Below, piece by piece: positions 2,548 to 38,523 of a DNA stretch of 38,835 nt. Origin of the DNA: a virus (lineage: Duplodnaviria; Heunggongvirae; Uroviricota; Caudoviricetes); the IMG/VR virus record IMGVR_UViG_2734482565_000006. One strand, given 5' to 3'. Position 1 is the stretch's first letter, and the number at the start of each line of letters is the position of its first letter. Made by a program: the position numbers and the translations under genes. Below the pieces are notes generated by a model. That model was not told the origin of the DNA and searched no databases. It saw only the letters and a list, made by a program, of their open reading frames with translations.

Positions 2548-4602
2548 TTACGCGTTATTCACTTCCACCACGATACTGTCAATCAGTACCGGGTAAGTCG
2601 CATTTTTAGTGATATCGGTCACGCGCAACTTGTCTGCCGTAAACGTGCCGACCGGAGACTGCGACAGCATGAATGGTGTCCCGTCCTTACCATCAATGAC
2701 CGGCGTCACCTCAATACTGTTGTTACCGGCAAAACGGAAGCCCAGCGTATGCCATTCGTTATTAAATGCGCCGAATGACCCCAGCTTCGTGTTCTGCGCC
2801 GTGTTTCCTTTGTGATACATCACGTTAAGGTCTGTGGCATCGCTCTGTACGTAGAACGATGCCAGCAGGTTATGACCGGCATTTCCTTCCAGAGTAACCC
2901 CTTGCGGCAGGGCAGAAACCGGCCAGTACAGCGCCAGTGCGTACTGATTAGCCGTAAGCGCGCCATCGAGTTTAAAACGACAACTGACAAGACCACCTTT
3001 ACCCAGCAGGTCCGCACCATTACCAGCATCATGCTCAAGGTACCAGGGGGCTCTTCCTGTTTCCTTGGTCAGTTTCATTGCCTTACCCCCGCTGGCTCCG
3101 GCATCATCCACGATTTGAGCCTTGCCACCTCCGGCAGCCCAACCCTGTGGTGTCAACCGTCCTTCAGACTCAGATGCCCGGTAAGCAAATAGCGTACTCA
3201 TCGTCGTGGTGTCTGCGGGTGGCGTGGACGGTTTTGATGGTGTATCAGGTGACGGCTTCTCATCCGGTGGTGTCACGGTCTGCCCACGCATCAGTTCAGC
3301 CGTGCGCCCTGCATGGAGCATAATAGCTGAGGCCAGACGGTCTGAAATGACGCCCCTGCGTGCCCATGAGCTGAAATGGCTGTCACGCTGTGTCGAAACA
3401 AAACTGCCCTGGGTTCGGGATGCTGCACCGTAATACCCGACAGCCACAATATCCGGGTCTTCCGCCGGAGCATTCGTTGGCGTGCTCTGTCCATTCTCAT
3501 CCGTCAGGAACGGTACAAAGAAAATTTTCTGTGCTTCCTTGCCTTTGTAGCCACCGTATACTGCCTCATATTTATCGGTGCCAGCGTTTTTCCAGTAATA
3601 CGTGGTATCACCGCAAATCCACGGCACCGTGGTGGCATTTCCACTCACGCACTGCGCAGCAAGCGGAGCCAGGTCAGTTCTGAACTGCTGAACCATGGCC
3701 GTGAATAAACTATTATGCTGCTGGCTTCCTGAGGCAAGGTCTGCCTCTCCCTGCATCCAGACCACAGCCAGAAGTTTGTTTTTCGGGTTTTTCGCCAGCG
3801 CGACTTTGGTGCGGCTTACCAGGTCCTGATACAGAGGTTTACCGGCCCCCCAGCGTGAAGAATCAGCGGAAGCACCGCTGGCCTCACTGAATGAGCCGTC
3901 GGCTCCAGTGGTGAATGCTGACCCGCCACGACAACAGGGCACCAGAAGTATCCCGGCATTCTGTGGGATATAGGGAAGCAGTTTTTTGGCAATATGCAAC
4001 CCCTGACCGACAGTCCCGTACTGGCCTTTTGCCAGATCAGCTTTCGGGTGGTTTATCCCGCTCATATCCTGAACATCATGCAGGCAGTGGTCTGCCGGAA
4101 TGATGTCGTTGTATGTACACGACGTACCGTTGGGCGTTACCGTACTGCGGCGTGCCAGTTGCTTAATGCGTGGGTCCGGGCGGTCAAACGAATCCGGTAA
4201 CGGCAGCCCCTCGCCGTAGGCCATGCCATTTGACTGACCCGCGAGAATGACAACAAAGTAATATTCCGGCTCTGAACTGCTGCCATTCGTGCTACCGGAA
4301 GGCCCGGCGTTATCCGGTGCATTCCAGTCGGAGGGCGTGAGCGTTCCGGCCACGTCAGATGTGATTGGAATGATGCCAGTCACGCCTGAACTGGTGATTT
4401 CTGCACTGGGATTACCGGATACCGGCATTACCCATAATGGCTCTTTCGTGCTGAAGCGGATCACGCAGTCTGCGAAGGTGATCCCCCCTTTATTACCCGA
4501 AGGGCGGAAAGGGCTTTCAATAAATGCCACCGTGCCACCGGCAACCTTGACTGAAAACTCTCCGGGCATGGCGGAGAGCATTTTCCACTTGGAGTCTGAC
4601 AT
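2548..4602 (-). CDS. SGNH-hydrolase / sialate-O-acetylesterase-like protein (prophage NanS-p-like) with C-terminal putative carbohydrate-binding domain
   Basis: 684 aa. A central block YFVVILAGQSNGMAYGEG ... VVWMQGEAD resembles the GQSN and QGE(A/S) motifs of SASA/DUF303 esterases. It sits as cargo between gin and com-mom; the SD is weak. Confidence 0.65.
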   Translation of the reverse strand: MSDSKWKMLSAMPGEFSVKVAGGTVAFIESPFRPSGNKGGITFADCVIRFSTKEPLWVMPVSGNPSAEITSSGVTGIIPITSDVAGTLTPSDWNAPDNAGPSGSTNGSSSEPEYYFVVILAGQSNGMAYGEGLPLPDSFDRPDPRIKQLARRSTVTPNGTSCTYNDIIPADHCLHDVQDMSGINHPKADLAKGQYGTVGQGLHIAKKLLPYIPQNAGILLVPCCRGGSAFTTGADGSFSEASGASADSSRWGAGKPLYQDLVSRTKVALAKNPKNKLLAVVWMQGEADLASGSQQHNSLFTAMVQQFRTDLAPLAAQCVSGNATTVPWICGDTTYYWKNAGTDKYEAVYGGYKGKEAQKIFFVPFLTDENGQSTPTNAPAEDPDIVAVGYYGAASRTQGSFVSTQRDSHFSSWARRGVISDRLASAIMLHAGRTAELMRGQTVTPPDEKPSPDTPSKPSTPPADTTTMSTLFAYRASESEGRLTPQGWAAGGGKAQIVDDAGASGGKAMKLTKETGRAPWYLEHDAGNGADLLGKGGLVSCRFKLDGALTANQYALALYWPVSALPQGVTLEGNAGHNLLASFYVQSDATDLNVMYHKGNTAQNTKLGSFGAFNNEWHTLGFRFAGNNSIEVTPVIDGKDGTPFMLSQSPVGTFTADKLRVTDITKNATYPVLIDSIVVEVNNA

Positions 4603-4687
4603 CGTCTTTTCTGCCTGTTTCTGAATTAAACAGAGTCAGAATAGCGACCGCTGAAAAATATGTGTTTTGCGGAAATTCAAAAAAGCG

Positions 4688-5260
4688 TCACGGTACTTTT
4701 GGTGACGGAGCTGGTGAGGCAGGAAAATAACGATAAAGGGTGGAAAGGCCAATATCAAATATCAGTGCGATTTGTTTACGGGACTCGCCATTAGCCAGCA
4801 AACGGGCGATTTGCTCCCGCTCTTTCTCTGTCAGTTTCTGAGGTCTGCCGCCATGACGCCCCTGAGCACGGGCAGCAGCAAGACCCGCGCGTGTACGTTC
4901 AATAATGAGTTCCCGCTCCATTTCCGCCAGCGCGCCCATTATATGGAAAAAGAAACGTCCCATGGGAGTGGATGTATCAATATTGTCCGTAATGCTGCGG
5001 AAGTTAACGCCGCGTTGCCGGAGTTCTTCTGTTAAAAGGACAAGGTGCTGCATACTGCGTCCAAGGCGATCCAGTTTCCAGACCAGCAGGGTATCCCCTG
5101 GCCGGAGTCGCTTTAATGCGCGTTTAAGTCCGGGACGCTCCCTTGTCTTACCGCTTATTCTGTCTTCGAAAAACAGCTCACATCCTGCACATTCCAGCGC
5201 ATTTCTTTGTAGCGCCGTATTCTGGTCATTTGTTGACACCCTGATATACCCAATCAGCAT
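4688..5260 (-). CDS. gin: serine DNA invertase Gin
   Basis: MLIGYIRVSTNDQ... is a resolvase/invertase N-terminal catalytic motif; 190 aa; C-terminal HTH; adjacent to an inverted-repeat-bounded tail-fibre segment. Confidence 0.95.
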   Translation of the reverse strand: MLIGYIRVSTNDQNTALQRNALECAGCELFFEDRISGKTRERPGLKRALKRLRPGDTLLVWKLDRLGRSMQHLVLLTEELRQRGVNFRSITDNIDTSTPMGRFFFHIMGALAEMERELIIERTRAGLAAARAQGRHGGRPQKLTEKEREQIARLLANGESRKQIALIFDIGLSTLYRYFPASPAPSPKVP

Positions 5261-5325
5261 ACGATTTCCTTATTATAAAAAGCCGGAATTGTCGCATGAG
5301 GAATAAAACAGAGTTAATCCTGGCT

Positions 5326-5351
5326 TTCCTGAAAACCTCGGTTTACGGGAA
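5326..5351. repeat. gix-like recombination site (gin-proximal)
   Basis: TTCCTGAAAACC TC GGTTTACGGGAA: imperfect palindrome around a central TC, similar to the gix/hix consensus. The inner arm begins a 71-bp inverted repeat (5337..5407) matching 6530..6600 with 2 mismatches. Confidence 0.6.
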
Positions 5352-5642
5352 ACGGTAAACAGGGCGGCGAATGCTCTGCCATCGGACGGCACCGCCGTTG
5401 CCGCGAATAGACTCGCCACCCCAAGAAATATTAATGGGGTTCCCTTTGACGGGACGCAGGATATCAGGCTGGGAGCAGAGAACAGGCAGGTAATGTACGG
5501 TGGGGCATATTACTCTGCGTACGGTAATGTTATGGCAGGCCTGCAGATTGACAGTAAAGTTGATGCTTCAAACGATTTTATAGCATTCAGACCCCTGCAA
5601 AAATTAGTCGGAGGTACATGGATTACGGTATCTCAGTTATAA
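5337..5642 (+). CDS. promoterless alternative tail-fibre C-terminal cassette (S'v), silent in this orientation
   Basis: No start codon. The frame [27 protein letters not shown]... matches residues about 175-200 of the S protein, then diverges to a different 75-aa tip ending TWITVSQL; stop at 5640..5642. Confidence 0.6.
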   Translation, partial: LGLRETVNRAANALPSDGTAVAANRLATPRNINGVPFDGTQDIRLGAENRQVMYGGAYYSAYGNVMAGLQIDSKVDASNDFIAFRPLQKLVGGTWITVSQL

Positions 5643-5693
5643 ATAGTCAGTAAATAATATATTTTAAAACAGATTTATTTCCAGGAGGATTTT

Positions 5694-6215
5694 ATGGAAC
5701 TAAAAAATATAACCCGTTATTATCCTGAAAATATGCCATATGGTAATAATGTTCAGTATTTCCAGAGTGAAGATGGTAAGGATTTCTACGAATCCCTGCC
5801 ATTATTCACCAAAAAATATAAACTTTGCATAACACCTGACAGCGGCGTTATCTGCTCAATATCACAGGACGCCTCGGCGCTGTATCCTGCGGGGTTTTCT
5901 GTGGTTGAGGTCGATGAACTCCCTGAAGGCACGGATATTTCAGGAAACTGGAAGTTTGATAATGGCATAATCTCCCGTATTCCGGTTAACTACGCAAGAA
6001 AACTGGAAGCAATGCGCCAGTCATATCTTAATCAGGCATATGAAAAAATTAATGACTGGAGAACGGAGCTACAACTGGGCACCATCAGCGATGAAGACAG
6101 AGCAGCACTTACCCAATGGATGGCATACATCAGTCAGGTGAAGAAAATGGAACTACCCGCCATTAAAACAGAAGCTGAATTTAACGCCATTAAATGGCCT
6201 GAGCAGCCACAGTAA
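5694..6215 (+). CDS. tail fibre assembly protein (U'-like)
   Basis: 173 aa with AGGAGG SD; Tfa-like composition and C-terminus; inside the invertible segment and in the inactive orientation relative to the late operon. Confidence 0.8.
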   Translation: MELKNITRYYPENMPYGNNVQYFQSEDGKDFYESLPLFTKKYKLCITPDSGVICSISQDASALYPAGFSVVEVDELPEGTDISGNWKFDNGIISRIPVNYARKLEAMRQSYLNQAYEKINDWRTELQLGTISDEDRAALTQWMAYISQVKKMELPAIKTEAEFNAIKWPEQPQ

Positions 6216-6218
6216 TAA

Positions 6219-6236
6219 AGAAGGCCGGAAGGCCTT
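6219..6236. terminator. hairpin between convergent U' and S genes
   Basis: GAAGGCC GGAA GGCCTTC 7-bp stem; on the minus strand it is followed by TTTATTA. Confidence 0.4.
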
Positions 6237-6246
6237 CTGAATATCA

Positions 6247-7128
6247 TTATATACTTGCAGCCGTCACCCATGCTCCATTTAACAGATACTGCAACGGCCG
6301 GTAATACACGCCGCCGACGTTATCTGCCGTATTCTTACCGACATCCTGTACTTTAATTCCGGTAAGAACATTGCCGCCCCCCAGATTCAGATCCCAGCTT
6401 TCCCATGTTCCGGGCATATGTGCGGTCACCGACCCCAGTCTTATGGCGGTTACTGTTCCTGATGAGATAGTGATATCCTGCGTCCCGTCAAAGGGAACAC
6501 CATTAATTGTGTGGGCATTTGCCAGCCTGTTCGCGGCAACGGCGGTGCCGTCCGATGGCAGGGCATTCGCCGCCCTGTTTACCGTTTCCCGTAAACCGAC
6601 GTTATCGATAAAAGCCCCTTTATCCGGAATGTCTGCGCCGTTCTGCTCCCTGCGCAGGTAACGGTTATCACCTTCGCTTTTGCTGTAAACATCCAGATTA
6701 TTACGGGCGGTTCCCTTATTCTCCAGGTCGGCGAGATTCTGATCCTTCGCCAGGGCATTAACGTCAGCGGGACCAAGACTGTTTTTTGTGGCAAGCGTCC
6801 CCAGACCAAGATAACCACGGGCCAGACGCTGGGCCTCCGCACCGGCATCAGCAATTTCTTTCAGGTTATTTTTCCGGGAAAAGGCATTCGCAGCGATAAT
6901 GGCTTTAATGGACAGCGTAAGCTGGTTTAACTGCGCCTTATCCGGCTGAATACTGGCTTCAGCCAGAATATTCAGCAGTTCGGCCTGGAGAATATTCAGC
7001 CAGTCCTGACCAATCCAGCTGATACCTTTTTGTCCGTCACCTTCGGTAAACCAGGTGGTGGTATTACTCTGCGCCGGTGCCAGCGCAGGCATATTCGCCA
7101 CGCCGGAATTATTATCAACATGAAACAT
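6247..7128 (-). CDS. tail fibre protein S (constant N-terminal part plus variable tip currently in frame)
   Basis: 293 aa; its start overlaps the gp48 stop; the C-terminal about 117 aa lie inside the invertible segment, and the gix-like site falls within the coding sequence. Confidence 0.75.
6586..6611. repeat. gix-like recombination site inside the S gene
   Basis: TTCCCGTAAACC GA CGTTATCGATAA; the inner half is identical to the reverse complement of the site at 5326..5351, with the central dinucleotide GA versus TC. Confidence 0.6.
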
Positions 7129-7688
7129 TAAATAGTCTCCTCTTCATGGCTGTTTGCATAAACGTAAATAAACGTCTGCCATGCAGGCTTATAACGGTTC
7201 AGAATACATTCCAGCGCACCGCCTTCATAAATACGCAGCGGCGTGAGAATATCATCCAGCACATTCATATTCCGGTAGCCGGTTTCACTGTTAATCGTGA
7301 CAATACTGACCCACTGCGAATCCGGTGAGGGCTGAATGTCAATCTGATAACCAAACTCCGCCGCAAACCGGATATAAAATTCACGGTTCAGCGAGGGCTT
7401 CATCCGGTATTTATTTCCGGCATAACGCTGTCGCTCCGTGAGGGTGGCTCCGGCCATATCACACTCGGGAAGCCCGAGATAACGCTCCCAGTCTTCCAGC
7501 AGCAGGCGCGACGTGTCAGGGAAACGCTCGGCAAGCAGCTGTTTACCCGTCCAGGATACACGCGCTGTCGAATGACTGAGGCCCAGACATAATGATGCCA
7601 GTACGGATGACGGACGCTTGTCCCATGCCAGCCCGTCAGGCAGTAACTGCAACAGGGCGCGCTGATGCGGGGTCAGGGTTACAGCCAT
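7128..7688 (-). CDS. baseplate/tail protein (Mu gp48-like)
   Basis: 186 aa; position between the baseplate J-like gene and the tail fibre gene; translationally coupled on both sides. Confidence 0.65.
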
Positions 7689-19408: not shown

Positions 19409-20541
19409 TATTGCATTTCCTCTTTCATTTTCAGGAACTCGGCTTCGGTTTTACCCAACAGACGTGCGGCGGCGATATCTTCAGCCGACAGCACAGCGGT
19501 GGCGGTCTTTTTATCCGGCACGGTTACGGTGTCGGTCTGAAGAGTGGTCAGAGCCGCAACCGGCTGGCGGGCGTCAAGCTGTGCAGAAAGTGCCGCGACG
19601 CCAATCTGTTGTCCGAGTCCTTCCATGTATCCGCGTTCGCTTTTGAAAATGCGTCCTTCGGACTCGGCCTTATCCAGCAACTGCTCCAGCGTGGTGCTGC
19701 CGTGTTGTGCCGACAGCGCGGCATATTCGGTACGCAGGGCGTTATACGTCTCAACGGGCACATATTTCGTCAGATCAATAGTGCCGCCAGTTGGTGTGCC
19801 TTTTGCGGTTTCCAGTTCTGCCGACAGGCTGGCAACCTGCGTTTTCAGGGTGTCGTGCGCATCCGCACGGGTTTTGATCCCGGTAAGGGCAGACAGCGCC
19901 GCCGTGCCCAGTTCCGGTGTAAATTCGTCACCGTCAGCCACGGTCAGACCGAGCGCCGTCAGCAACTGGCGTAATTGCTCATTCATGGGGGATTGCTCCT
20001 GAGAAGGGGAAACGACATAGAGATCATCAGCACTGAGTGCCGCGACAGGGTTCATACCCGTAATACCCGGATCATTCGTCAGGGAAGCCATGCGCAACAG
20101 GTAGGGTTCCCCGGTGTCAGCGAAATAATGCATATATGCAGACAGATAGGCATATTCACGGTCATCAATATGTTTTTGTGCCTGTGGTGTCCATTCAGGT
20201 TTAATGAAAATCCCCTGACCCTCACGCCATTCGATGTTTTCCGGCTTAACCCATCCTGCAGCAATAGCCTTGAATCCGTTTTTCTGCGCATTCACGGAGT
20301 GATGGTCATAATCAATCAGTAACGGCTGATGCAGGGCGGAAAGCCCGGCTTTCATCCGGTTACAGGCGGATTCGTTAATCAGCCAGCCTTCAGTCGGTTT
20401 TTCCGGGCGACCGTCACGGGCCTTTACCCGACCGGCTGGCAGTAACTGACACCATCCGTCGCCGGATGCAGTCAGCGAAGCTGAAAGCACGGCTAAACCG
20501 GAGGGGCGATTTGCGTCTTTTGGGTGATTTTCTGTCTTCAT
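19408..20541 (-). CDS. head protease / scaffold protein (Mu I-like)
   Basis: 377 aa with an N-terminal protease-like region and a C-terminal Ala/Leu/Thr-rich helical scaffold-like region; preceded by a 177-bp intergenic region. Confidence 0.8.
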   Translation of the reverse strand: MKTENHPKDANRPSGLAVLSASLTASGDGWCQLLPAGRVKARDGRPEKPTEGWLINESACNRMKAGLSALHQPLLIDYDHHSVNAQKNGFKAIAAGWVKPENIEWREGQGIFIKPEWTPQAQKHIDDREYAYLSAYMHYFADTGEPYLLRMASLTNDPGITGMNPVAALSADDLYVVSPSQEQSPMNEQLRQLLTALGLTVADGDEFTPELGTAALSALTGIKTRADAHDTLKTQVASLSAELETAKGTPTGGTIDLTKYVPVETYNALRTEYAALSAQHGSTTLEQLLDKAESEGRIFKSERGYMEGLGQQIGVAALSAQLDARQPVAALTTLQTDTVTVPDKKTATAVLSAEDIAAARLLGKTEAEFLKMKEEMQ

Positions 20542-20718
20542 ACCGGCAGCATAAGCCGGGTATTTTTGGGGCTGGTTTTGCGGGACTTCAGAAAGTGCTG
20601 ACAGGGGGGGAATGAGAAAGGCGCTTCACGCAGATTTTAAAGCCCGTTAAATACAGGTTAGAAAATCACGACACGCGCCTGAAGGGGGTAAGGTAATACG
20701 TTTGCATACCTTAAACCA

Positions 20719-28703: not shown

Positions 28704-28774
28704 TGTTACGCTGTCTCATGGTGTTCTCTGAGTCAGCGTAACCGTGAGGAAAAGGGGGCAGGATTTGCGGAATA

Positions 28775-34232: not shown

Positions 34233-34460
34233 TTAGCTGACTTGTTTCGCACCAACAGAACGGCATATTCCGCTGTAAACTTCTGTCGCACCTTCGCGAT
34301 CAAGTCCGGCAGATATCACCATTCGTGTGCGGTCATTAAATTCAAAAAGTAAATCGCCACATTCTTTATTTTCGGCCAGTGAAATCACCTTCACGTTATC
34401 GAAATTAACCAGGTAAAAGCGTCCGTAAATATCAGGAATATTAAATACCGCCATAATCAC
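34233..34460 (-). CDS. hypothetical protein
   Basis: 75-aa ORF immediately downstream of B with a 4-bp overlap. Confidence 0.45.
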   Translation of the reverse strand: MIMAVFNIPDIYGRFYLVNFDNVKVISLAENKECGDLLFEFNDRTRMVISAGLDREGATEVYSGICRSVGAKQVS

Positions 34461-35398
34461 ACCTGTGAGAGTAATTCAGGGTTGGTATAAACCTCTTTAA
34501 AGGCCGCATTAATATGTTTTTCTGTCAGCGCCGCGCCTTCACCGCTGGCGGTGAGCCACGCCTGGTTAAGCGTATGTGTCAGAACGCGTAACGCTCCCGG
34601 CTTTTCAGCGATAGCCTGCATGACGGCCAGCTCGGCCTCACCACTGATCCCCCACGCCATGGCAATGGCCAGCACATCCGCCTTTTTGGCCTTGCGAAGT
34701 TGTTTTGTACGGGCAAGACGGCTGAACAGGCGCGATAAATCATCAAAGGCGCGGCGTCCACCTTTAAACAATCCGCGCGGGTTACCAATAAGCACCATCC
34801 CGATCCCCGTGGCGTCCTGAATTGCCCGGAGTTGCTCCAGACCGTCAATACCAAGATGATCCGCCTCATCCACAATCACCAGTCCACGCGTTCCCATCAG
34901 GCGACGGCGGATGGCGCGGGATAATGCCCCTTTGTTCGCGCGGGTGTAATCAATCCCCAGCGCATCGGCCAGCTCCAGCAGACACTCCGTGACGCTGGAG
35001 TGCGCGGGTGACAGGGTGATCATCCAGGTGTTTGGTTGCTCCTGGCAGTAATTACGGGCAGTGGCCGTTTTACCCACACCCGGTACGCCCACAATAACGT
35101 TAATACAGCCCATCAGGCGAACCGCCTGAAACAGTGCGCGCAGCTCCTGGACTGTCTGAGTTTCCACAAACTGCGGCGGTTCCGGCAGTGCGCTTTGTTT
35201 ATTCCAGTTCTCATACCAGGAGCGCAGGGAAGCAGCCACAGCAGCGTTATCGCCTTTATATTTTCCCTTACGGAAAGCCGATAATGTGCCGTCGGAAATT
35301 CCCGCCTCTCTGGCGATGGCATACTGCGTCAGTACGCCGCCATCAATAAGTTCATCAATGGTCTTGATTACATCGTTAATATCGGTCATATTATTCAC
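34457..35398 (-). CDS. B: transposition protein B (AAA+ ATPase target-DNA activator)
   Basis: 313 aa; Walker A VGVPGVGKT, Walker B-like LVIVDEADHL; N-terminal HTH; immediately downstream of the transposase. Confidence 0.9.
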   Translation of the reverse strand: MNNMTDINDVIKTIDELIDGGVLTQYAIAREAGISDGTLSAFRKGKYKGDNAAVAASLRSWYENWNKQSALPEPPQFVETQTVQELRALFQAVRLMGCINVIVGVPGVGKTATARNYCQEQPNTWMITLSPAHSSVTECLLELADALGIDYTRANKGALSRAIRRRLMGTRGLVIVDEADHLGIDGLEQLRAIQDATGIGMVLIGNPRGLFKGGRRAFDDLSRLFSRLARTKQLRKAKKADVLAIAMAWGISGEAELAVMQAIAEKPGALRVLTHTLNQAWLTASGEGAALTEKHINAAFKEVYTNPELLSQV

Positions 35399-35471: not shown

Positions 35472-37559
35472 TCAGGCCAGCGGATCACTTTCTTTTAATT
35501 TCGCTTCGAGCAGTTGCAATCCCCGCTGGAAATTACGCTCGTATTCTTCATCAGGTTCATCGTCAGCGACCGGTTGCTGAACGGTCACCGTATTACCCAC
35601 AGGGCGGTATATGTTTTCCAGCCAGGGCTCCTGCGGCTTGTGCTCCAGCACGTTGACAACCTCATCCTCGGCATCACGGATTTTTTCCTCTGCGCGTTTA
35701 CGCATGCCTTTAAGGCGCTGCTGCTGTTTGTAGTATTCCGCGCTGACAGGGAAGGCTTCGCGTTTATTGCCGTCCCATACCGCCTCGCAAATCACGCTGC
35801 CATCCGGGCGGCGCACGGTAATTCGTTCGGCATCATGAATGTCATAGCTGATAAGTACCTTACGGCCATGCTCGTCACGCAGCTCGGGCGCGTAGTAAAT
35901 ATTATTCAGCCAGCGTATTTCACAGCGTCTTACAGGGCGCTCCACCATCGGCCGGAACATATCCCGCAGTTCAACATCGGACAGCCATTCAATTTCCGTG
36001 TCCTCTTCCGCCAGGCGTTTTTTTCTGAACTCCGCCGGGCTGTAATGTTTACCGTTCGGCTTCATGGGTAATTCATCGTGCGGCCGGTTGTTGTACCACT
36101 CAACACCGTCACGAATGGCATCAATCAGTTCAGACCAGGACGGTAAATCACGCATCGCTGACTGCTGCCGGGCGTTCAGCCGTTTGCCCTGTTGCAGGGC
36201 ACTGAATGCCGAGCGTAAATCGCGGTTGGTTTTACGTAACGTCTCGCGATCTGCTCCTTTCCCGAAATAGGTGCGGTATTTACGGGCTATGCGCATCGGT
36301 AATGTGCGGTTAAGCCGTTCGATAATGCCCCGTCCCTGCGGATTACCGGCAATCCCTGTCGGGTGATTAATCCCCAGTCGTGGCAGTATCCCCACAATCT
36401 CCTTATCCAGGACGTCGGCGGTTTCCCCGGAGCCATTATCCGAGTAATACAGAAACGGTTTGCCATGATGGCGAATACCGTGCTGTATGGCACCGGCTAC
36501 GGCGAAAACATTTTCAGCCAGGTCAAGGCTCCAGCCCACCACAAAGCGCGTGCCACCGTCGATAACAAAGGTCACTTCCGGTGCGAATGGCCGCCCGTGA
36601 ACCGGGTGCGCGCATTTCAGCTTCATGCCGTGACCGTCACCAATCCAGACATAATTCACCGGCATTCTGGACCAGTCGCGGCGCGTGAATCCCTCAAGCT
36701 GACGGTATTCACTGCCAGTTACCCGGCCTTTTTGTTTCACCACTTCCGGCAGTTTCTTCATTGCGCGGCGAATGGTGTCATAAGAGGGCATGATATCGAG
36801 CATATAAGGCTCATCAGCGTGCCGGTGCTGCCATTCAGCAACAAAATCCTCGTAAGCCTCGGTCATTGGTCGGCCGTTTGACTGGCGATACTGCGCCAGA
36901 AATTCGGGCAGCCAGTTAATATCTTCGGCTTTTATTTCCTGGCGTTTACCCGGTGCCAGTAAAAGCAGGCGTTCAGCGGCGTTCTGTGCCTTGTTAAAGG
37001 CCGCAATCCAGCGTTTCAGCGTGATTTCACTCAACGCGCGGCTGTTTCCCTTTTTGGCGTTCGCCGTCTCAACCATTGCCACAATGCGCTCGTCCAGTTG
37101 TGATCGTGCCAGGCTGTTAACGAGGAACCGGATAGCTTTAGCGCAGCTGAAACCGGGTTGTTGCGTGAATTTCAGCACCTCACTGACGATCGCAATGCGT
37201 GCGTCTGCCACCTGGCGCTGGTTTTCAGTCAGGGCATTGAGGCGTTCGACCATCAGTTGTGGTGATCCGCGATATGCCTCCACCGCATCAACCACGGCAG
37301 ACGAGCGTCTGGCCTTTGTCACCACCGGAGCCGGTGATTCATCGGCTTTTTGCGTCATCAGTTGCAGGGCATAACGTTCGCGTAATGCCTGCTGTGTCAC
37401 TTCAGGTAAACAGTCAATGCTGTATTCAAAACCTTTAGCGCCTTTCTTGCGGCGTCTGCTGGTTTCGCTGGTTGCATACTTCCTGATTGAATAGCGAACG
37501 CCTTGCTCCGTTCCCGGCATCCCCGGTAATCCAACCAGTTCTTTAACTGAAGCAAACAT
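35472..37559 (-). CDS. A: DDE transposase A (MuA-like)
   Basis: 695 aa; N-terminal Mu-type DNA-binding domain (LVGLPGMPGTEQGVRYSIRK...KKGAKGFEYSIDCLPE); follows ner by 3 bp. Confidence 0.95.
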   Translation of the reverse strand: MFASVKELVGLPGMPGTEQGVRYSIRKYATSETSRRRKKGAKGFEYSIDCLPEVTQQALRERYALQLMTQKADESPAPVVTKARRSSAVVDAVEAYRGSPQLMVERLNALTENQRQVADARIAIVSEVLKFTQQPGFSCAKAIRFLVNSLARSQLDERIVAMVETANAKKGNSRALSEITLKRWIAAFNKAQNAAERLLLLAPGKRQEIKAEDINWLPEFLAQYRQSNGRPMTEAYEDFVAEWQHRHADEPYMLDIMPSYDTIRRAMKKLPEVVKQKGRVTGSEYRQLEGFTRRDWSRMPVNYVWIGDGHGMKLKCAHPVHGRPFAPEVTFVIDGGTRFVVGWSLDLAENVFAVAGAIQHGIRHHGKPFLYYSDNGSGETADVLDKEIVGILPRLGINHPTGIAGNPQGRGIIERLNRTLPMRIARKYRTYFGKGADRETLRKTNRDLRSAFSALQQGKRLNARQQSAMRDLPSWSELIDAIRDGVEWYNNRPHDELPMKPNGKHYSPAEFRKKRLAEEDTEIEWLSDVELRDMFRPMVERPVRRCEIRWLNNIYYAPELRDEHGRKVLISYDIHDAERITVRRPDGSVICEAVWDGNKREAFPVSAEYYKQQQRLKGMRKRAEEKIRDAEDEVVNVLEHKPQEPWLENIYRPVGNTVTVQQPVADDEPDEEYERNFQRGLQLLEAKLKESDPLA

Positions 37560-37977: not shown

Positions 37978-38523
37978 ATGAACAAGCAAACAACAACATC
38001 TCTTTCTTTTCCTGGTGGTAGAAAAGAAAGCATTGCTGAGCGTCTGAAAAGGCTGATTGGCTCCCGCAGCGTCAGAGCTGCAGCAAGAGATTGGGGGCTT
38101 TCATTTTCAACACTAAACAATTATCTGTCTCGTGGCACTGAGCCATCCTTAAGTGTCGCCCTTCAGATTGCGTCTATCGAAGGAGTAAGTGTTGAGTGGC
38201 TATGTGGATTCAGTGATGCATCACAAGTGAATCGGTGTGAGATCAAGGAAAATCAAGATGAAAGCAAGAAGATAATTATGACGATTATCAGCGCACTTGA
38301 TGAAAAAGACTTAGAGCAGCTATCGAAAAATTTGGTTCTGAATGGAGCCAAGTACTTAGCTCGGTTGTTAGAGCCTGAAAATCAAGATCTAATCCGCTTA
38401 GAAGGAAGGAAAAGAATAGCTGCATTACAGCTTGAAGGTATGTCTGACGAACGCGTCAGAGAGATTTTGGAAGAAACTGAGAGAAGTCGCAAATCTAACG
38501 CGGTAGAACCAAAAGCGGGTTAA
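37978..38523 (+). CDS. prophage repressor (XRE/CI-type HTH, no peptidase domain)
   Basis: 181 aa, divergent from ner-A-B next to attL. N-terminal RDWGLSFSTLNNYLSRGTEPSLSVALQIASIEGVSVEWL has an XRE-family HTH pattern; it lacks the MuA-like motif. Confidence 0.65.
   Translation: MNKQTTTSLSFPGGRKESIAERLKRLIGSRSVRAAARDWGLSFSTLNNYLSRGTEPSLSVALQIASIEGVSVEWLCGFSDASQVNRCEIKENQDESKKIIMTIISALDEKDLEQLSKNLVLNGAKYLARLLEPENQDLIRLEGRKRIAALQLEGMSDERVREILEETERSRKSNAVEPKAG

Follow-up and report, generated by a model that had tools for sequence, protein, structure and literature searches.

A Mu-like invertible tail-fiber segment with two alternative tips and a single assembly gene

How can a phage that exchanges the tip of its tail fiber provide both tips with an assembly chaperone when the exchangeable segment carries only one assembly gene? 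The question is raised by a short invertible segment in IMG/VR virus record IMGVR_UViG_2734482565_000006, which we analyzed at its full length of 38,835 nt (38.8 kb; hereafter the window, to which all coordinates refer unless another locus is named). An initial annotation of this DNA had noted that the expressed fiber tip has no co-oriented assembly gene and had offered three explanations, namely that the tip folds without a chaperone, that the prophage is locked in a defective orientation, or that the assembly gene, U', is expressed from its own promoter. The best-supported reading of our results is closest to the last of these: a single tail-fiber-assembly (Tfa) protein is probably shared by both tips and expressed in either orientation of the segment.

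One of the two limits of the invertible segment lies within the tail fiber gene S. Its limits, annotated as a gix-bounded stretch of about 1.26 kb at 5326-6611, are the outer edges of two gix-like crossover sites whose centers are 1,260 bp apart. The content that had been proposed for it is borne out by the open reading frames (ORFs), by a match to the Caudo_TAP family and by a six-frame profile search: a variable tip (Sv) is expressed in frame with S, and a silent alternative tip (S'v) is accompanied by a single Tfa gene, U', which is co-oriented with S'v and convergent with the expressed S-Sv. Besides its Pfam match (Table 1), U' matches the Mu U chain 5yvq_B (E = 4e-16). When the segment is inverted in silico, the constant N-terminal part of S (Sc) is joined to S'v to give a 277-aa fiber, with U' following 51 nt later, i.e., the S-S'v-U' set that the annotation had foreseen. 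Either tip continues the reading frame of the constant part (products of 293 aa and 277 aa), and the flip exchanges the last ~115 residues of the 293-aa S, of which ~74 are unique to Sv.

A profile hidden Markov model built from 51 Tfa proteins and run over all six frames of the whole window detected no second Tfa; U' was recovered with E = 5.6e-63 and the next best match had E = 3.5. The minus-strand, S-oriented assembly gene that the initial annotation had looked out for was therefore not found. Likewise, the window does not have the arrangement of the Mu G segment, where S is paired with U and S' with U', each assembly gene being co-oriented with its fiber end. Because there is one Tfa gene rather than Mu's two, one orientation lacks a co-transcribed chaperone. 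Otherwise, the comparison with the G segment that had been suggested reveals the same switch logic at the same place. The shared properties include the position after gp48, near-identical gix sites, a crossover inside S about 170 codons in, a constant part with 47% identity, a C-terminal motif common to the tips, com/mom at the corresponding end of the genome and a closely related invertase. The differences are in size as well as in the number of Tfa genes: the segment is 1.26 kb compared to ~3 kb in Mu, and the variable parts are ~100-117 aa compared to 320-335 aa.

The switch appears to be real and working, judging by the sequence of the window and by relatives of this exact copy, in which the inversion itself is seen. 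The two 26-bp sites are mutually inverted, have the same central dinucleotide TC, resemble Mu gix (TTATCCAAAACC-TC-GGTTTACAGGAA) and are placed at the outer ends of a 136-nt inverted repeat, both arms of which encode a common 37-letter protein stretch. The adjoining Gin-type serine invertase is intact, shares 74% identity with Mu Gin and has Ser at position 9 of its N-terminus (MLIGYIRVSTNDQ). In Mu, a Fis-dependent recombinational enhancer acts in cis from inside the 5' part of the invertase gene. At positions 60-180 of the gene, 30-nt windows are 63-80% identical to Mu gin at the DNA level, a figure that cannot by itself show Fis binding. Direct evidence comes from the locus L002 (strain NCCP 13983), which is an exact inversion of L001 (strain JE86-ST05) at the site centers, with 5 mismatches compared to 818 when the two are read colinearly. 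The inversion that the annotation had asked about is thus detectable among near-identical relatives. Among 32 family loci from Escherichia coli genomes and IMG/VR contigs, ~24 are oriented as in the window (Sv-on) and ~8 are flipped (S'v-on), and each of three Tfa allele groups contains both orientations. The site cores agree in all 24 family loci that have both sites, 22 of them being TC/TC and the remaining two, prophage Sp18 of E. coli O157:H7 Sakai (sites at 38337 and 39699 of L169) and one other locus (L037), being TT/TT; in that lineage the central dinucleotide changed at both sites together.

The asymmetry is not peculiar to this copy. The single-Tfa layout recurs in about 40 loci, Sp18 among them, even where Tfa identity falls to 60%; its parts follow one another as invertase, site, tip, tfa, hairpin, opposing tip, site and, lastly, the constant part of S. 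Family matches are present in 237 of 5,426 complete E. coli genomes; a Tfa query against the genome contigs collection gave no match, and none of the cultured phages in the phage collection has this module. We conclude that the single-Tfa asymmetry is conserved across the Mu-like prophages of the Sp18 family and is no degenerate exception. Within the E. coli family the position without a chaperone gene is always occupied by one tip class, which ends in ADN[IV]GGVYYRP..Q....N.AW.T..S, and the Tfa-linked position by three other, unrelated tip classes. Nei-Gojobori estimates of the ratio of nonsynonymous to synonymous substitutions (dN/dS) indicate purifying selection at the Sv position (0.04-0.18, with synonymous divergence, dS, above 1), at the S'v position (0.04-0.44) and in Tfa (0.10-0.23); because of the values at the two tip positions, both tips are most likely functional in the family. 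The S'v of the window itself bears a private 57-bp in-frame deletion at 5456/5457, between CAGGA repeats, by which QDINITSGITQQDADSRYI is lost relative to L001. The long form of S'v is found in 20 of 20 complete E. coli genomes with this tip and in all IMG/VR copies, and the silent S'v of this copy may be impaired, though it is still in frame.

Does the expressed tip need a chaperone at all? Sv ends in Y.RP.Q..NG.W...S, as do the Mu S and S' tips, and Sv and S'v can both be aligned to the C-terminal ~70 residues of Mu S and S', with this terminal motif kept. According to North et al. 2019, as summarized in PMC9608196, Mu S needs U, and the Mu Tfa protein (TfaMu) remains bound to the fiber tip. 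Outside the family we surveyed 63 loci with Sv-class tips, of which one ends at a contig edge just after the tip, leaving 62 that are readable downstream. In every one of the 62 the tip is followed by a co-oriented ORF that overlaps the stop codon or starts no more than 14 nt from it. These ORFs have 50 distinct products, 49 of them Caudo_TAP proteins. The closest outside relatives of U' (57-61% identity) are mostly located after Sv-class tips. Since the Mu-like C-terminal motif is retained and a Tfa gene follows Sv-class tips elsewhere, the Sv tip is expected to need Tfa; these comparisons suggest dependence, and the proposal that the current tip folds without a chaperone is unlikely to hold. 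A separate observation is that the Sv tip (6247-6504 on the minus strand) matches the C-terminus of the short tail fiber of the Pectobacterium phage phiTE (PDB 9cuy chain c, residues 463-552, E = 1.6e-9), which places the same tip class, by sequence, in an unrelated flagellotropic myophage; the paper on the phiTE short fiber (PDB 9cuy) makes no mention of a chaperone.

If Sv needs Tfa, the protein has to be available in the Sv-on state, and two lines of evidence bear on this. One and the same deletion, by which the invertase and most of S'v were lost, is present in eight viral contigs and in five or more E. coli genomes, that of strain M3 among them; it begins at the invertase gene's 3' end and extends to the final ~60 nt of S'v. 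These derivatives, whose contigs are otherwise whole prophages of 35-36 kb, are fixed Sv-on, and all of them retain a full-length Tfa convergent with S-Sv, with dN/dS of 0.10-0.23 at dS of 0.1-0.43 between the copies. The second line of evidence comes from the Sakai lysogen, where 70-mer oligonucleotide arrays recorded the same profile for ECs4990 (Tfa) and ECs4991 (silent tip), which rose by log2 2.1 from 4.6 h to 5.5 h, as opposed to ~0.3 for ECs4989 (S) and a flat profile for ECs4993 (Bergholz et al. 2007, PMC2241611). In the Sakai reference genome the Sp18 segment is Sv-on. Because Tfa is kept in the invertase-less derivatives and because of these array profiles, the data suggest that the silent tip and tfa form a separate transcription unit. 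The GC-rich hairpin between the convergent stop codons (Table 1) is also present in the invertase-less locus L003. On a different matter, the invertase-less copies (L003 3003-3308, from E. coli M3; L020; L024-L029) carry several different Sv alleles, which implies later exchange of the tip by recombination.

The following mechanism is consistent with these observations. The Gin homologue recombines the two sites, one of which is inside S, this being the step documented in relatives, and the 1,260-bp flip replaces the fiber end by the alternative tip, a host-range switch of an Sp18-type prophage that amounts to a cut-down Mu G segment. The single Tfa would act on both tips, as their common chaperone or cap. 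When the segment is S'v-on, U' would be read after S-S'v as part of the late tail operon; when it is Sv-on, as in the window, U' would be transcribed with the silent tip as a separate unit, which would start at some point between the start of the invertase gene and U' and run up to the hairpin lying between U' and S-Sv. It is possible, and we put this forward tentatively, that a promiscuous Tfa serves every interchangeable tip and thereby allows the cassettes to be small, and that a dedicated silent-tip and tfa unit, active in lysogens and induced on entry into stationary phase, makes the supply independent of orientation; the "silent" cassette would then be transcribed and the chaperone regulated apart from the fiber.

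Several points weigh against a shared Tfa expressed in both orientations. The array data come from Sp18, whose Tfa is only 61% identical to U', and from an uninduced lysogen rather than from lytic growth; the arrays give relative changes only, their signal may include cross-hybridization with a paralogous module, and the mix of orientations in the culture is unspecified. The diversity of Tfa among the invertase-less copies may stem from recombination rather than from accumulation after the deletion. That Sv-on particles carry fibers and are infective is a prediction. Most directly, no promoter was located upstream of U', so that of the annotation's third proposal the independent expression of U' is what is best supported, while the promoter itself was not found. 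A sigma-70 consensus scan of the plus strand at 4500-7300 gave no site, nor did one appear upstream of Sp18 tfa. The Mu C-protein box (TTATN6ATAA, checked at Mu Pmom) is absent near U'. The putative Plys and PI of this phage also gave us a late-promoter motif, CCGCAAA-N22-TTAYGCT; a relaxed match upstream of U' (5595-5629) is one of four in 77.6 kb of two-strand sequence, and we rejected it as the U' promoter because it has no extended CTGAAnTy box, overlaps the conserved PLQK and WITV codons and is absent from other Tfa alleles. In the invertase-less L003 a weak promoter-like hexamer pair, TGGACA-17-CATATT (9 of 12 positions matched), lies across the deletion junction; it was set aside because hits in that region are no more numerous than in shuffled sequence.

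These searches yielded two observations that concern other genes. The extended element CTGAAnTyCCGCAAA-N22-TTAYGCT is found upstream of the lysis genes (28728-28770 on the minus strand) and of the head protease/scaffold gene (20541-20583 on the minus strand) and is kept in Sp18, which makes it a candidate recognition element of the phage's late activator, unlike the Mu C-box. The only perfect Mu-type C-box in the whole window, TTATGCGGGAATAA (2197-2210), lies 12 nt upstream of the start codon of a DUF826 gene, a spacing that is unfit for a C-dependent DUF826 promoter, and a single match is within chance expectation (25 of 100 shuffles).

Three other explanations of the asymmetry are less probable. 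Sv-class tips might trimerize without Tfa, in which case the switch would alternate between a Tfa-capped fiber (S'v) and a bare one (Sv) and U' would serve S'v only. The failure to locate a U' promoter fits this view, and the restriction of the chaperone-less position to one tip class, set against three unrelated ones at the Tfa-linked position, could reflect a special property of that class. We regard this as unlikely, given that the same tip class stands directly before a Tfa gene in all 62 outside loci and is itself the Tfa-linked tip in a prophage of Citrobacter braakii (described below), that the invertase-less derivatives have this tip only and yet keep Tfa intact and constrained, and that Sv retains the C-terminal motif of the Tfa-dependent Mu tips. 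Another possibility starts from the expressed operon without a co-oriented Tfa and holds that Sv-on gives fiber-less or non-infective particles, the segment being an on/off switch or the decaying remnant of a four-gene G segment. The lack of a cultured phage with the module in the phage collection and the private deletion in the window's S'v fit such a view. It is nevertheless improbable: the tips at the Sv position are under strong purifying selection with dS greater than 1, Sv-on is the commoner state and is fixed in otherwise whole invertase-less prophages, and Sp18, described as having an invertible host-specificity region with genes distinct from those of Mu (Asadulghani et al. 2009, PMC2669165) and carried Sv-on in the Sakai reference genome, undergoes spontaneous induction with efficient packaging of its DNA and releases Mu-like particles (the same paper, which is silent on fibers and infectivity). 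The annotation's second proposal, a prophage locked in a defective orientation, is rejected in view of the intact invertase, the equal site cores, the inversions seen in L002 relative to L001 and in about a quarter of the family loci (~8 of 32), and the purifying selection on the chaperone-less tip.

The remaining possibility is that Tfa is supplied in trans, by other resident prophages or by flipped sister copies of the genome in the same cell. Tfa alleles do reassort freely against both tips within the family, and the Tfa proteins of Mu, P2 and lambda are partly interchangeable, both of which count in favor of supply from elsewhere. Still, the Tfa genes of resident prophages are normally repressed, and a phage that enters a new host could not count on them, inversion by Gin is reportedly infrequent, both in lysogens and during lytic growth (PMC10434027), and the retention of Tfa in the invertase-less derivatives would be left unexplained, which together make this explanation very improbable. 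A shared Tfa expressed in either orientation, if true, would mean that the minimum cassette for retargeting a contractile-tail phage or tailocin is ~75-100 codons without a matching chaperone, and that the textbook pairing of every alternative fiber with an assembly gene of its own does not hold generally. The family concerned is common in E. coli and includes the prophage of O157 Sakai.

Table 1. Features of the invertible segment and of the surrounding window (coordinates in nt)
Feature	Position	Strand or location	Details
Tail fiber S, 293 aa	7128-6247	-	ORF spans the right-hand site
Constant N-terminal part of S (Sc), 176 aa	6599-7128	-	47% identity to Mu S residues 1-191; PDB 5yvq_A E = 9e-46, 8ju3_A E = 9e-47
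Expressed variable tip Sv, class alpha	6247-6598	-	Lies within the S ORF; homology to Mu S and S' over their last ~70 aa; dN/dS 0.09-0.17
Silent alternative tip S'v, class a	5340-5642	+	Joined in frame to Sc when the segment is inverted in silico
Tfa gene U', 173 aa	5694-6215	+	Pfam Caudo_TAP (PF02413) E = 4.8e-19, 69.2 bits against a cut-off of 22.1
8-bp GC-rich hairpin	6219-6238	between two convergent stop codons	AGAAGGCC-TTCC-GGCCTTCT then TTATTACTGT; resembles a minus-strand terminator
Gin-type serine DNA invertase, 190 aa	4688-5260	-	Pfam Resolvase E = 1.6e-51 and HTH_7 E = 4.9e-15
gix-like crossover site, invertase side	5326-5351	+	TTCCTGAAAACC-TC-GGTTTACGGGAA; central TC at 5338-5339; 21 of 26 positions as in Mu gix
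gix-like crossover site inside S	6586-6611	-	Minus-strand read TTATCGATAACG-TC-GGTTTACGGGAA; plus-strand central GA at 6598-6599; 22 of 26 positions as in Mu gix
Inverted repeat, 136 nt	5331-5466 and 6471-6606	left arm and right arm	Complementarity of 93% over 86-nt arms and of 97% over 37-nt arms
Baseplate wedge protein gp48	7128-7688	-	Pfam Phage_Mu_Gp48 E = 7.5e-22; just upstream of S, order as in Mu
com/mom	322-1258	left window end	Pfam Mom E = 1.6e-77
ORF in transposase A position	35472-37559	right end	Role assigned from size and position only
ORF in transposase B position	34457-35398	right end	Role assigned from size and position only
ORF at expected repressor position	37978-38523	+	Role assigned from size and position only

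The element of the window is a variant of the Mu G-segment type inside the already noted Sp18 prophage family. The related switches, i.e., the P1 C segment with cin, the e14 P segment with pin and p15B Min, use the same recombinase family and fuse a constant fiber N-terminus to alternative C-termini, and, unlike the window, they have a Tfa for each alternative fiber end. Sp18 (ECs_4989-ECs_4992) has an identical architecture in the same orientation in its reference genome, with alleles that differ from those of the window not only in Tfa and in the site cores noted above but also in the tips (Sv class beta, S'v class c). A larger version occurs in the prophage of Citrobacter braakii ATCC 51113 (L170 4819-7223), which shares the gp47-gp48-S module, a constant part of S with 74% identity, a Gin homologue and a single Tfa convergent with the expressed S, but has three gix-like sites, two silent cassettes and an S of 472 aa, with the Sv-class tip in the Tfa-linked place. 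It is a multi-inversion version of the same single-chaperone design. Our literature search found no paper on the single-chaperone layout or its expression, and the papers on the full-size G segments of SfMu and of Yersinia Mu-like phages do not cover this variant.

By its gene content, the window is a complete Mu-like transposable prophage of E. coli in minus-strand orientation. The gene order agrees with that of phage Mu and more closely with Sp18: gp47 and gp48 are directly upstream of S, and the succession gp48, S, convergent tfa, silent tip, invertase, DUF6645, com/mom is that of the Sakai prophage. The constant part of S has 95-98% identity to the Sp18-type loci L033-L038. The window differs from Mu in having extra genes between the invertase and mom (DUF6645/SASA esterase, DUF1378 and DUF826). 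The largest of them, at a place where Mu has no gene, encodes a 684-aa protein (2548-4602 on the minus strand) that has a SASA (sialate O-acetylesterase) domain and ends in DUF6645; this gene is preceded by CCGCAAA-N21-CTATTCT (4630-4672), similar to the putative late promoters of the phage; the protein may be a late-expressed esterase, either a virion part or receptor-modifying. Inserted between the esterase gene and com/mom (1931-2415 on the minus strand and 1470-1763 on the plus strand) are the DUF826 and DUF1378 genes, whose usual place is near the lysis genes of lambdoid prophages, and, beside them, a 97-aa plus-strand ORF that belongs to no Pfam family.

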